Shown here piece by piece: positions 13,621-23,682 of a stretch of DNA of 64,000 nucleotides. The stretch lies in the sequence record MW822011; one strand, written 5' to 3'. The DNA comes from Shigella phage TB004. Below the pieces are notes generated by a model that saw nothing but the letters and a program-made list of their open reading frames with translations, searched no databases and had not been told where the DNA came from. Positions within the stretch are counted from its first letter, which is position 1. Each line of letters starts with the position of its first letter. Both the position numbers and the translations under genes were made by a program.

Positions 13621-13893
13621 ATGAAAACATTTAAAGAATTTATCAATGAAGCTACTTTTAACGAAAAAGTAAAAATTAGTAAAGCTGTCAAGACTTTGAT
13701 TGCTGACATCAATTACCTATATGATATTGATTTAACTGACTATGTAACAGTTGGTAACAAACGTAACTTTTTCGTGTTTGACATCTCTGAACTTGACCAG
13801 AATCAAATTAACAACATTGAGCGTTTTGCTAATGATAAGGGTCTTCGTCATGAGTCAGCGGGTTATAAAAAATACGCAATTTATTTAAAATGA
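13621..13893 (+). CDS. ipI: internal protein I-like, N-terminal capsid targeting sequence MKTFKEFINEA
   Basis: ATG with GGAG RBS; N-terminus matches the MKTYQEFIAE-type targeting sequence of T4 internal proteins; position after 57B. Confidence 0.6.
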   Translation: MKTFKEFINEATFNEKVKISKAVKTLIADINYLYDIDLTDYVTVGNKRNFFVFDISELDQNQINNIERFANDKGLRHESAGYKKYAIYLK

Positions 13894-13953: not shown

Positions 13954-14262
13954 ATGAAAACATTTAAAGAATTTATCAATGAAGCGGCTGCGCCAAAGAC
14001 ATTCGTTATTAATACTCAGGCGAGTCTTGATGATGAATACGCGGAGGCAATTCTGAAGTCACTTGCTAAGAACGGTGTTGAAGTAATTGCTTCGGACTTT
14101 AAGAAAGGGGCTTCCGAGATGTTTATTTCTATAACTAAAGGATCTAAAGCTAAGATTAAATCATCATTCGGAGTTGCTCGTACCGATCAAATCGACAATC
14201 ATGACTTTAAACAAACTGGTGCTAAACGGCAGAATACAATTGCATCACGCGGAATAAAATAG
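13954..14262 (+). CDS. second internal-protein-like gene with identical targeting sequence (MKTFKEFINEAAAP...) and different cargo
   Basis: 102-aa ORF with the same leader and first 11 codons as ipI. Confidence 0.55.
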   Translation: MKTFKEFINEAAAPKTFVINTQASLDDEYAEAILKSLAKNGVEVIASDFKKGASEMFISITKGSKAKIKSSFGVARTDQIDNHDFKQTGAKRQNTIASRGIK

Positions 14263-16262: not shown

Positions 16263-16817
16263 ATGAGAAGTGATGTAGACTGGGACCAAATTAATTTGGC
16301 TATAAAAGCTGGATTAATATACCGTGGTAATTTTGAAATAACACAAGAACTAATTGAAAATGTTGCTTTTCTTAAAATAACAGACAAGAAAAAATTCTTT
16401 TCTATGACTAAAGCCAAACGCTTGTCAATATGGAAAGTATTTTGTAGGACTGCCGCCCTAAATCTTTTGAAATTTAAAGATGAATTTGATATAGAAAAAA
16501 GCTATCGGCAAGCTTTCGTATACATAATGGTAGATACTACAAATCCTAATTATTATAAAATAGGAAGAAGTATAGAACCCGATGTTAGAGTTATAACAGC
16601 AAATACATTTTCACCGTTTAAAAGTTTTAAAATAGTATCATTTAGATATTCCCAGGATGCAGTAGAACTTGAAAAATATATGCACAGCATTTATAATCAG
16701 GACCATATAAATGGCGAATGGTTTTTCTTTCATGACATAAGTTCCATAGTTAAAAAATTAGATACTAAATCTACACAATTTGAAATACCAAATGAGAAGC
16801 CGGGTCGCTACCGGTAA
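16263..16817 (+). CDS. T5orf172/MUG113-like (GIY-YIG superfamily) domain protein, possible homing-endonuclease relative
   Basis: 184-aa ORF with FVYIMVDTTNPNYYKIGRS motif, directly after tRNA-Arg. Confidence 0.5.
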   Translation: MRSDVDWDQINLAIKAGLIYRGNFEITQELIENVAFLKITDKKKFFSMTKAKRLSIWKVFCRTAALNLLKFKDEFDIEKSYRQAFVYIMVDTTNPNYYKIGRSIEPDVRVITANTFSPFKSFKIVSFRYSQDAVELEKYMHSIYNQDHINGEWFFFHDISSIVKKLDTKSTQFEIPNEKPGRYR

Positions 16818-16889
16818 GTCGTCGGACTGATGTTCCCTGCGTAAGGACTGGTCTTAATAAATCTTTACGATTTGTTAATATCCCCTTAC

Positions 16890-17065
16890 ATCACAGCAGA
16901 AACGGCGCACCGAATTATCGATTCGAGGAAATATCTTTGCCGTAAGCCGAGTAGCGTTTTTGACGGAACGTTCGGATATGGTCGAGATATGGCCTTTTAA
17001 AAATATTGAGTAGCGTCAACTACTTAATAACCGGGTTCGAATCCCGGCGTTTCGTACAAACACTT
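16890..17065 (+). ncRNA. candidate small stable RNA with tRNA-like T-arm, in the position of the T4 tRNA-cluster stable RNAs
   Basis: About 350 nt without a credible ORF; CCGGGTTCGAATCCCGG T-arm-like hairpin; terminator follows. Confidence 0.3.
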
Positions 17066-17097
17066 GCCTTAGCAGGTGGAACCCCGACAAGGTATAT

Positions 17098-17127
17098 AGC
17101 CCCTTCCGAAAGGTTGGGGCTTTTTTG
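17098..17127 (+). terminator. rho-independent terminator (AGCCCC...GGGGCT + T6)
   Basis: 6-bp GC stem followed by TTTTTT. Confidence 0.6.
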
Positions 17128-17135
17128 TATAAATA
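17128..17135 (+). promoter_or_regulatory. late promoter TATAAATA
   Basis: Exact TATAAATA 35 nt upstream of the ATG at 17171. Confidence 0.5.
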
Positions 17136-17170
17136 TAGTAAACAATAAACCTACTTTCTAAGGACCATCA

Positions 17171-17551
17171 ATGTATACTTTTAATGAATTTTTAGCCGAA
17201 ACGGAAGTAATCACCGAAGCCGGCGTACGTATGACAAAAGAGAAATGGCAAGCTGCTTACGATGCTATTTCTGGTACAAAAACTAGTACAGAGTTTTTCA
17301 AAAACGTTCAAGCCATGTACGGTATCGACACTTCTAGCCAAAAAGAATATTACAGAGCTTCTAAAGCATTCAAAGATATTGTTAGTGGTGGTGTTTCTGC
17401 TAAATCGGGTTCGCCTAAAGTAAAACCTGCTCCTACCATTCCTAAACCTGCGACCCCTAAAGCAAAACCTGAGCCTAAGCCGGAAGTAAAAGCACCTCCT
17501 AAAGCTCCTGCTCTTAAGTTTGATACTTCTAGCCTGGAAAAAAAAATATAA
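17171..17551 (+). CDS. hypothetical protein with internal-protein-like N-terminus (MYTFNEFLAE) and Pro/Lys-rich tail; ends inside an A9 tract
   Basis: 126-aa ORF; N-terminus resembles the targeting sequence of the ip genes; stop is 2 nt after a run of nine A. Confidence 0.5.
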   Translation: MYTFNEFLAETEVITEAGVRMTKEKWQAAYDAISGTKTSTEFFKNVQAMYGIDTSSQKEYYRASKAFKDIVSGGVSAKSGSPKVKPAPTIPKPATPKAKPEPKPEVKAPPKAPALKFDTSSLEKKI

Positions 17552-17792
17552 ACAACTATCTTCGCTTGTTCGTGATATTGAATCCGATACATCTTCACTC
17601 GTTCGTGAATTCAATAGTCTTCGCAATGGCCAACATATCAACAACCTTGATACCCCAGACCTTTATCGTCTTTATTTGACTATCGAAGGTTTGAAGTATA
17701 CTCAACCACTTCACGATGCGATTAAAGAAAAACTTCGTCAGGCAGGTCGTTTGGCTGCTGACGCTGCTCAGTATGCAAAAACCCGTAAATAA
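17520..17792 (+). CDS. reading frame continuing the upstream gene after the A9 tract (no ATG of its own)
   Basis: Open frame with no in-frame ATG; one fewer A would fuse it to 17171-17551. Confidence 0.35.
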   Translation: MILLAWKKKYKQLSSLVRDIESDTSSLVREFNSLRNGQHINNLDTPDLYRLYLTIEGLKYTQPLHDAIKEKLRQAGRLAADAAQYAKTRK

Positions 17793-17867
17793 TTAAGTTA
17801 CAATCACTTAAGCCCCTTCCTATGGTTGGGGCTTTCGGGCATCTAGGGCAGATAAATTTTTCACAAA

Positions 17868-17900
17868 GTTGTTTACTTCTCCTTGAGGTATGATACTATA
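17868..17900 (+). promoter_or_regulatory. T4-type early promoter
   Basis: GTTTAC ... TATGATACTAT. Confidence 0.5.
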
Positions 17901-22281: not shown

Positions 22282-22849
22282 ATGAAAACCTATAAAGAAT
22301 TTATCGCTGGAAAAGGCCAAAGGCATTAATAAAGATGAGTGGACTTACCGAGGAAACGGCTTTGACCCTAAAACAGCCCCTATTGAACGATACTTAGCTA
22401 CAAAAGCTTCCGACTTTAAAGCTTTCGCTTGGGAAGGACTTCGCTGGCGTACCGATCTAAATATTGAAGTTGATGGGCTTAAATTTGGCCATATTCAAGA
22501 TGTTGTTGCTAGTAACTTGGATGCAGCTTTTGTTAAAGCTGACGGTGACCTTCGTCGCTGGAATTTAAAACTATTCTCTAAACAGAAAGGCCCGGTGTTT
22601 GTGCCTAAAGCTGGTAAATGGGTTATTGATAATAAATTAGCTAAGGCTGTCAACTACGCTGGTCTTGAATTCGCCAAGCATAAATCATCATGGAAAGGTC
22701 TTGATGCAATGGCCTTCCGTAAAGAATTTGCTGATGTTATGGCTAAAGGCGGCTTTAAGGCAGAAATAGATACCTCTAAAGGTACGTTTAAAGACGCTAA
22801 TGTTCAGTACGCTTACGCTGTTGCTAATGCAGCCCGTGGTAATTCTTAA
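22282..22849 (+). pseudogene. ipIII: internal protein III-like gene interrupted by a +1 frameshift after codon 13
   Basis: MKTYKEFIAGKGQRH-stop, then an open shifted frame (KGINKDEWTYRGNGFDPKTAPIERYL...) to 22849; removing one C near 22317 restores a single ORF of about 189 aa. Confidence 0.65.
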
Positions 22850-22957: not shown

Positions 22958-23260
22958 ATGAAAACATATCAAGAATTTATTACTGAAGCGCGAGTGAGTG
23001 CAGGTAAATTAGAAGCCGCTATAAATAAAAAGGCCCATTCATTTCACGATTTGTCCGATAAAGACCGTAAGAAACTTGTAAGCCTTTATATTGACAAAGA
23101 GCGTATTCTCGCTCTTCCTGGCGCTAATGAAGGTAAACAGGCCAAGCCTTTGAATGCTGTCGAAAAGAAAATTGATAACTTTGCTTCTAAATTCGGTATG
23201 TCTATGGATGACCTTCAGCAAGCGGCTATCGAAGCAGCTAAAGTAATTAAAGGTAAATAA
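22958..23260 (+). CDS. ipII: internal protein II-like (100 aa) with MKTYQEFITEA targeting sequence
   Basis: Targeting-sequence N-terminus; size and position between ipIII and denV. Confidence 0.65.
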   Translation: MKTYQEFITEARVSAGKLEAAINKKAHSFHDLSDKDRKKLVSLYIDKERILALPGANEGKQAKPLNAVEKKIDNFASKFGMSMDDLQQAAIEAAKVIKGK

Positions 23261-23317: not shown

Positions 23318-23682
23318 ATGACTCGTATTAATTTGACTTTAGTATCTGAACTTGCTGATCAACATTTAATCGCGGAATACCATGAATTGCCGCGTGTTTT
23401 TGATATAATTCGTAAACACGCGGCAAATGGAAAAATGATTATAATCCATGCAAATCAGCTATTAAGTTGAGTCAACAACGACTCGATGAAAAAATTTTAA
23501 TGAAGCCGCATTGGTATAAGTATTACGGCAAAAATATTTACATTCAAATAACATGGGAACAAGCTGGACCTCATGATTCTGTGAGGGATTCCCGCCAACC
23601 TGTAATAAGGTCGAGCCCAAGTGCGGTAATGGGTAAATACAGAAATGGACAATTCATGCGCCACGGAATGGCCCAAATTTAG
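23318..23682 (+). pseudogene. denV: denV (endonuclease V, pyrimidine-dimer glycosylase) with internal deletion and frame change
   Basis: N-terminal 46 aa [17 protein letters not shown]... then stop at 23470; C-terminal remnant SQQRLDEKI..KPHWYKYYGK in another frame. Confidence 0.65.

Follow-up and report, generated by a model that had tools for sequence, protein, structure and literature searches.

The region from 17171 to 17792 on the plus strand of the window, as we call the whole 64-kb stretch of DNA that was analysed, forms one gene, putatively late, of a T4-like coliphage. The product, which is basic (pI 9.5) and has a size of about 23 kDa, belongs to the unannotated family phrog_2280, and the reading frame of the gene is interrupted at a run of nine A. 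The lesion is an ordinary, non-programmed hot-spot frameshift at an A-run that is prone both to mutation and to error. We give a probability of roughly 55% to the reading that it is a genuine frameshift allele of the replication-slippage (Streisinger) type, in which an extra A was added to an A8 run in a conditionally dispensable gene. The A9 allele would yield a 126-aa product that keeps the targeting sequence and is without the conserved C-terminal domain. The G+C content of the window was 34.9%, and the phage is a member of the Tevenvirinae.

Two segments make up the gene. The 5' segment (17171-17551, plus strand) is an open reading frame of 126 aa, which begins with a putative capsid-targeting sequence (CTS), continues with a small helical domain and a linker rich in Pro and Lys, and ends in ...SSLEKKI. 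The A9 tract (17538-17546, plus strand) encodes the E-K-K of an invariant K-K-Y motif and is A8 in almost all relatives. The TAA stop of the 126-aa frame lies at 17549-17551, 2 nt past the tract. The 3' segment (17547-17792, plus strand) has 81 codons and a stop and no start codon, and it encodes the conserved, predicted three-helix C-terminal domain (YKQLSSLVRDIE...AKTRK). Without a single ATG, the +1 frame stays open between 17490 and 17792, and the first in-frame alternative start past the stop is a TTG about 130 nt further on. When one A was removed, the two segments were joined into 206 aa and a stop, with the junction SSLEKKYKQLSSL, exactly as the relatives encode it. No other A/T run in the 64 kb is as long as 8 nt (runs of 5, 6 and 7 number 339, 68 and 3), and the A9 tract is also the only homopolymer of the window where a change of one nucleotide in either direction joins two long frames without a downstream start codon. 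The sequence-only reading had placed the open reading frame, the A9 run, the stop 2 nt beyond it and the promoter motif where we found them, and our scan of 17490-17792 bore out its claim that the downstream frame has no ATG. Its claim that one fewer A fuses the frames also held; the size of the fused protein is 206 aa and not the approximately 207 aa that it gave.

The fused protein matched the phrog_2280 profile over its whole length (positions 1-178 of 178, E = 1e-58) and was 93-99% identical to intact proteins of 206-210 aa in related phages. All of the first nine relatives fetched (9/9) had A8 and one CDS of 206-210 aa, and the cluster of full-length proteins contained 112 distinct members in a database of 5.8 billion proteins. 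Homologues in Dhakavirus (JS98), Winklervirus (CHI14), Tegunavirus (fHe-Yen9-01), Karamvirus and other genera were always encoded by a single ORF of 189-218 aa. Both parts were contiguous in one frame in nearly all relatives, across at least five genera. A Pfam scan of the fused protein gave nothing above threshold. Since the fused protein spans the whole profile and the relatives have one ORF, the two ORFs are one gene, as had been proposed from the sequence, and by this comparison the fused form is the normal state of ORF 17171-17551 and the downstream frame.

The gene is located between the tRNA cluster and the e.x genes. Upstream of it, a stem-loop (AGCCCC...GGGGCU) followed by U6 (17098-17127, plus strand) resembles an intrinsic terminator that would end the upstream tRNA/ORF unit. 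Folding of this hairpin gave -17.1 kcal/mol (z = -3.07), and the record of phage G53 annotates the same element as a terminator; our consensus terminator scan missed it owing to the loop size. The hairpin and U6 are adjoined by TATAAATA, a T4-type late promoter motif (17128-17135, plus strand) that lies 35 nt 5' of the ATG. The motif occurred 13 times in the window against 11.1 +/- 3.4 expected, so that the motif alone is not enriched. It was kept 5' of the homologues in JS98/IME281-type phages and fHe-Yen9-01, which belong to two other genera, and what credibility it has as a putative late promoter comes from its position and its conservation upstream of homologues. The late promoter motif named in the sequence-only reading was present where it was expected. 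A Shine-Dalgarno sequence, AAGGA, can be read at 17160-17164 (plus strand), 6 nt 5' of the ATG at 17171. Downstream of the gene there is a second copy of the stem-loop (AGCCCCTTCCTATGGTTGGGGCTTT; 17811-17835, plus strand), which is followed by an early-promoter-like sequence, GTTTAC...TATGAT, for the next gene. The two copies (17101-17123 and 17813-17835) are 78% alike (repeat family D3) and bracket the gene. A search of Rfam with 16800-17900 gave no match. The tRNA-like sequence 5' of the promoter was not called by ARAGORN; a 94-nt tRNA-Lys is annotated in one relative.

The gene was common to 71 GenBank records at 96-99% identity, and those with taxonomy shown were Mosigvirus. Among the best 60 of the 71, the tract was A8 in 57, A9 in 1 and A7 in 2. 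The A9 record was that of PNJ-6, where the gene is annotated as a truncated CDS of 128 aa, and of the two A7 records, CEV1 is a contig marked UNVERIFIED and ECCR664 shows indels at other homopolymers too. Outside GenBank, two contigs carried A9, one from the IMG/VR metagenomes (L010) and one from Logan (L015), and three further contigs carried A8. Scans of the IMG/VR and JGI metagenomes with a length-tolerant pattern gave one locus each. Truncated forms ending in ...EKKI were present in the protein database as P0013, P0020 (9 contigs, possibly non-independent samples), P0021 (2 contigs) and P0033. P0021 differs from P0020 by one residue (F4V), and a distinctive background is common to both; this pair suggests that A9 was inherited in the P0020/P0021 lineage. 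Two 'partial' entries of 124 aa in the database derive from NCBI bacterial assemblies, and the downstream piece is entered there as a separate call of 90 aa. An exact look-up showed that the 126-aa product of the window is not on record elsewhere.

When the tract was masked, each of the four A9 alleles was nearest to an A8 allele, with 5-9 differences per 613 nt, and the A9 alleles differed from each other at 8-18 positions per 613 nt. Because the nearest neighbours of the A9 alleles were all A8, the change arose, or was miscalled, at least four times. In all shifted alleles the downstream frame was intact, with the same reading as in the A8 alleles. In the other genera the corresponding V-K-K-Y was encoded by GTT AAA AAA TAT (A6) or GTT AAA AAG TAT (A5), and their ORFs had no run of 7 or more anywhere. 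The long A run was found only where the Val had changed to Glu (GAA). Since the other genera have A5 or A6 at this place, the long tract is specific to its lineage and does not represent a conserved slippery signal.

To judge between a genuine allele and a miscall, the rest of the window was compared with its relatives. None of the other 410 homopolymers of at least 5 nt in the window splits a gene, and the eleven other candidate junctions were normal gene junctions, each with its own Shine-Dalgarno sequence and ATG. With probe proteins from two relatives, 117 of 125 mapped at full length in one frame; seven corresponded to absent genes and one to a real deletion. This tblastn audit is blind to lesions in the first ~7% of a protein, and the ipIII lesion described here was found by DNA alignment alone. 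In alignments of 8000-32000 to L016, in which the A9 gene has no counterpart, the uncompensated indels that disrupted a CDS were deletions in ipIII and denV. The true ipIII gene (ATG at 22282) has an 11-nt deletion just past the CTS, which gives MKTYKEFIAGKGQRH and a stop; its 178-codon body is intact in another frame. The deletion was private to the window genome among the best matches listed (268 matching records). In denV an internal deletion of ~187 nt left a stub of 50 codons. The lesions in ipIII and denV are not at homopolymers and cannot be homopolymer artefacts.

Genes for internal proteins are dispensable on laboratory hosts and are lost on permissive hosts (PMC9026906, PMC9391042). 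The ipIII gene was lost repeatedly in experimental evolution, yet it is required on strain ECOR17 (PMC9026906, PMC9391042). Taken together, the lack of any other split at a homopolymer, the real lesions in ipIII and denV and the dispensability of such genes favour a genuine allele. The A9 state was also seen in independent assemblies, namely PNJ-6, the IMG/VR contig and the Logan contig. The perfectly intact downstream frame means that the lesion is either very recent or not real. In T4, A-runs in the rII and e genes are Streisinger-type frameshift hot spots. The tract described here resembles them in that recurrent, independent changes of one nucleotide in either direction occur at the longest A-run of a T-even-type phage, and differs from them in that its changes are known as database states alone.

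A sequencing or assembly artefact is the strongest competitor. According to this account the gene is intact in the phage, with A8 and a product of 206 aa, and the ninth A entered the sequence by error. The tract is the longest homopolymer of the 64 kb and so the likeliest site of error for any platform, A8 was present in 57 of the 60 best-ranked GenBank relatives (of 71), and the A7 alleles came from visibly poor records (CEV1 and ECCR664), which shows that the tract is miscalled in practice. An undecayed downstream frame and a nearest neighbour with A8, as found for every shifted allele, is moreover the pattern expected of errors. However, no other homopolymer-linked frameshift was found in the 71 runs of 6-7 nt and the 339 runs of 5 nt, and the large majority of the probe proteins (117 of 125) were intact; the assembly is therefore accurate. 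In addition, A9 was present in several independent assemblies and was repeated in one lineage (9 and 2 contigs), and other lesions that are certainly real lie nearby in dispensable genes. We therefore regard a miscall as possible, with about a one-in-three share of our belief, and the genuine allele as the likelier of the two. Both the sequencing error and the genuine frameshift allele that the sequence-only reading had offered as options stay in play; its third option, slippage that yields both products, was not supported as a designed mechanism.

The tract might also serve as a contingency locus, in which A8 is kept because switching between A8 and A9 or A7 at a high rate turns an injected effector ON and OFF and so hedges between hosts. 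At least four independent origins of A9 and two A7 alleles are consistent with such a role, as is the share of length variants, which made up several percent of the assemblies. The tract lies at the start of the conserved domain, where a shift would be a clean OFF switch, and internal proteins are host-specific anti-defence factors (PMC9391042, PMC3012670). If this account were true, phage populations would hedge between hosts where the effector neutralises defence and hosts that detect the effector. On the other hand, the tract is absent in the other genera (A5/A6), the OFF state is rare, descendants with signatures of decay or reversion were missing except in one lineage, and nothing indicates that the OFF state is ever advantageous. 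The tract has no synonymous interruptions; with 14.4% of third positions variable, the probability of no change at its 3 sites is ~0.63, and the absence of an interruption is thus uninformative on selection. We consider a contingency locus improbable, and we hold the same slim expectation for a reversible switch in which the OFF allele still gives a low 'trickle' of full-length protein by transcriptional or +1 translational slippage.

Programmed recoding would mean that slippage on the A-run, transcriptional or ribosomal, sets a defined ratio of the 126-aa to the 206-aa product. To restore the frame of the A9 allele, either the mRNA must lose one A or gain two (A8 or A11) or the ribosome must shift by +1. 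Runs of 9 A/T are sites of efficient slippage in vivo for bacterial RNA polymerase (PMC5009743), and precedents exist in T. thermophilus dnaX and Citrobacter tssM (PMC4256274). Slippage of the polymerase on A9 could give A8 or A11 mRNAs and a small full-length fraction, and if tRNA-Lys slipped by +1 on the last AAA, the wild-type ...EKKYKQL... would be restored exactly. A -1 slip on A_AAA_AAA leads into a junk frame, the one that is read in the A7 record CEV1. The RNA polymerase of E. coli needs at least 8 A and is biased towards insertion, with no deletions of A on the poly(A) runs tested (PMC6260861), and this bias opposes the direction that rescue would have to take here. The 94 nt past the tract folded no better than shuffled sequences (z = -0.10), so that there is no stimulatory structure 3' of the tract. 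In the A8 relatives the long product is normally made in frame and no recoding is needed, homologues outside this allele type do not keep the tract (the other genera have A5 or A6), and the short product is without the most conserved domain. The option of slippage that yields both short and long products by design is accordingly largely refuted by the comparative data, and we judge it very improbable.

Within the favoured reading of a genuine allele, incidental rescue at a low level on A9, by either of the two kinds of slip just named, is plausible (PMC5009743). It would resemble the non-programmed transcriptional rescue of the Citrobacter tssM type (PMC4256274, PMC6260861, PMC5009743). In both cases a gene is interrupted at a long A-run and some full-length product is possible. 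The present case differs in that A9 is at the lower limit for the E. coli RNA polymerase and that a change of -1 or +2 is needed against the +1 insertion bias of the enzyme. Finally, the locus could be read as a pair of genes, one for a 126-aa CTS protein and another for a 90-aa protein that starts on its own at the TTG at 17520. The mechanical ORF call (17520-17792 with a TTG start) and one database entry of such a 90-aa call (P0031) agree with this account. Against it, the second frame lacks an ATG, the TTG is not preceded by a Shine-Dalgarno sequence, and in nearly all relatives, which cover at least five genera, the parts form one continuous frame; this leaves the account with a negligible chance.

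The protein of the gene is probably an internal protein that is targeted to the prohead and processed by gp21, as judged by analogy with T4. Codons 1-10 (17171-17200, plus strand) encode MYTFNEFLAE, a CTS-like propeptide with a gp21-type L-x-E motif, and there is a second conserved I/L-x-E site at residues 14-16 (I-T-E/A, which ends at codon 16). In T4 IPIII the first ten residues suffice, with positions 4 and 7 setting targeting and positions 8 and 10 setting processing by gp21 (PMC9026906). At positions 4, 7, 8 and 10 the protein has F, F, L and E, compared with Y, F, I and E in T4, which agrees with the targeting sequence that had been suggested for this N-terminus. The determinants of gp21 cleavage, Ile or Leu at 8 and Glu rather than Asp at 10, were found as L8 and E10. 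The decapeptide was identical to MKTYQEFIAE of T4 at 6 of 10 residues, and the MKTYNEFLNE of homologues in other genera at 7 of 10; [LI]-x-E was present in 11 of the 12 complete N-termini aligned. The mature form was computed to be small and basic, with 21.7 kDa and a pI of 9.7. Three other ORFs of the window begin with a CTS-type decapeptide, at 13621, 13954 and 22958, the last of which is IPII-like.

If the protein behaves like IPI, IPII and IPIII of T4, its propeptide would dock it onto the scaffolding core of the prohead, and the gp21 protease would then cleave behind Glu10, Glu16 or both. The mature form would enter the head together with the DNA and pass into the next host on injection, probably as a host-specific anti-defence cargo. 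The T4 internal proteins (Mullaney & Black 1996, via PMC9026906 and PMC3012670) share with the present protein a decapeptide of the MKTYQEFIAE type with an aromatic residue 4 and Phe7, the Ile/Leu8-x-Glu10 for gp21 cleavage, a small and basic nature, a putative late promoter and a site in the plastic region from the tRNA genes to e. Dispensability is a further likeness, which is suggested here by frequent inactivation. Unlike them, the protein shows no similarity past about residue 26, is not encoded in the ipIII/ipII position and has a predicted two-domain architecture with a Pro/Lys-rich linker. Orthology with IPIII was rejected, since BLASTP showed similarity to an annotated IPIII over residues 1-26 and no further (E = 0.011), the true ipIII occupies 22282-22849 and the gene is not located between e and ipII/denV. 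T-even internal proteins have only the CTS in common (PMC3012670), and the end of the similarity to IPIII after ~26 residues agrees with this. Our literature search found no virion proteomic report or capsid-targeting experiment for the phrog_2280 family. The family carries the annotation "hypothetical protein" everywhere.

An AlphaFold model was made for the natural orthologue P0001, which is 98% identical. Residues 1-18 were predicted to be disordered and were followed by a helical domain (~20-72), the linker and a three-helix C-terminal domain (122-206), with a pLDDT of ~85-89. The Pro/Lys-rich linker (residues 76-115; 17396-17515, plus strand; residues 74-112 in the model) is predicted to be disordered and contains imperfect repeats of 24 and 42 nt (families D1 and D2), and the length variants of 206, 208 and 210 aa among the relatives are due to these linker repeats. 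Most of the invariant columns of the family alignment fell within F117-K206 and included K124-K125-Y126, which is encoded by the A tract itself. The alignment thus indicates that the C-terminal three-helix domain, which is missing from the product here, is the most conserved part of the family. Fold searches with the model gave no significant match in the PDB (best E ~2, generic helical hairpins), and a BFVD fold search returned the own family alone, with no functional clue.

The flanks of the gene were closest to Tequatrovirus records. In several respects the locus is like the PeSL cassettes of T4-type phages (Arbiol et al. 2010, PMC2839356): the gene lies between two similar G/C-rich stem-loops, an early-type promoter is located 3' of the downstream stem-loop, and among genomes that are otherwise alike the gene is present in some and absent from others. 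It differs from them in that the upstream stem-loop is followed by a late promoter motif and not by an early one. PeSL cassettes were proposed to shuffle accessory genes in T4-type phages (PMC2839356). By analogy, PeSL-like shuffling could explain how a gene that is otherwise found in Mosigvirus records came to lie within a Tequatrovirus-like backbone.

For annotation, the 126-aa and 90-aa calls belong merged and flagged as one frameshifted gene. A genome with lesions in two genes for CTS proteins and in denV fits the loss of accessory genes on permissive hosts, and such loss is relevant where a phage is used for host-range work or therapy. The novelty is modest: judged by sequence, a family so far without annotation resembles the CTS-bearing internal proteins and would be a new one among them, and none of this would surprise a specialist. 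Among the injected internal proteins, the target is known for IPI alone, and for IPIII a host-range phenotype is on record (PMC9391042). The family phrog_2280, with members in Mosigvirus, Dhakavirus, Winklervirus, Tegunavirus and Karamvirus, is a candidate addition to these few injected, probably anti-defence proteins.

The Pro/Lys-rich linker encoded by the candidate internal-protein gene (window 17400-17501) consisted of imperfect direct repeats with a spacing of 24 and 42 nt. Among the relatives, the length of this linker varied in steps of 6 nt, giving proteins of 206, 208 and 210 aa. The homologue in Shigella phage SSE1 (MK639187) had the A8 tract, but near the start of the gene its T-run at codons 7-8 was longer by one T (GAATTTTTTAGCC). 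Because of this extra T, the SSE1 CDS was annotated from a later start, with 202 aa. The extra T is a further homopolymer lesion or miscall within the same gene.

One of the A9 lineages, found on the IMG/VR contig UViG_3300030021_000002, displayed a change of F to V at residue 4 of the capsid-targeting sequence (MYTVNEF..., contig positions 12437-12448), a key targeting position. The truncated database protein P0020 had a background identical to that of this lineage but retained F4. The F4V change possibly reflects a constraint that was relaxed once the frameshift had arisen.

The CTS-type decapeptide was also present at the start of three further ORFs in the window. Two were located at the IPI locus and started with MKTFKEFINE (13621-13893, 90 aa, and 13954-14262, 102 aa), and one was IPII-like and started with MKTYQEFITE (22958-23260, 100 aa). 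A second disrupted gene in the window was the true ipIII orthologue (22282-22849), in which 11 nt were deleted immediately 3' of the CTS, where the relatives have TGAAGCTTCTG. The resulting product reads MKTYKEFIAGKGQRH followed by a stop, and the IPIII body of about 178 codons is still open in a different frame. Every best-matching GenBank record retained the 11 nt, so the lesion is private to the TB004 genome among the best matches listed, out of 268 matching records. The endonuclease V gene denV was a remnant (23318-23541), having lost about 187 nt internally, not a multiple of 3, with an ORF of 50 codons remaining.

Upstream of the candidate gene, a tRNA-like sequence (16963-17090) was located between a GIY-YIG/T5orf172-like ORF of 184 aa (16263-16817) and the terminator. 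It was annotated as a 94-nt tRNA-Lys in one relative, and neither ARAGORN nor Rfam made a call for it in the window. This sequence may represent either a tRNA that has degenerated or a small RNA like T4 rnaC/rnaD.

The candidate gene was flanked on both sides by near-identical G/C-rich stem-loops (17101-17123 and 17813-17835), which were 78% identical across 23 nt. An early-promoter-like motif, GTTTAC-N17-TATGAT, followed the downstream stem-loop. Paired stem-loops around a gene, with such a motif after the downstream copy, resemble PeSL cassettes, by which modules are shuffled among T4-type phages (PMC2839356). The gene was common to the window and Mosigvirus records, and its flanks were nearest to Tequatrovirus. 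The PeSL-like bracketing is consistent with a mosaic in which a Mosigvirus-shared gene lies between Tequatrovirus-like flanks.
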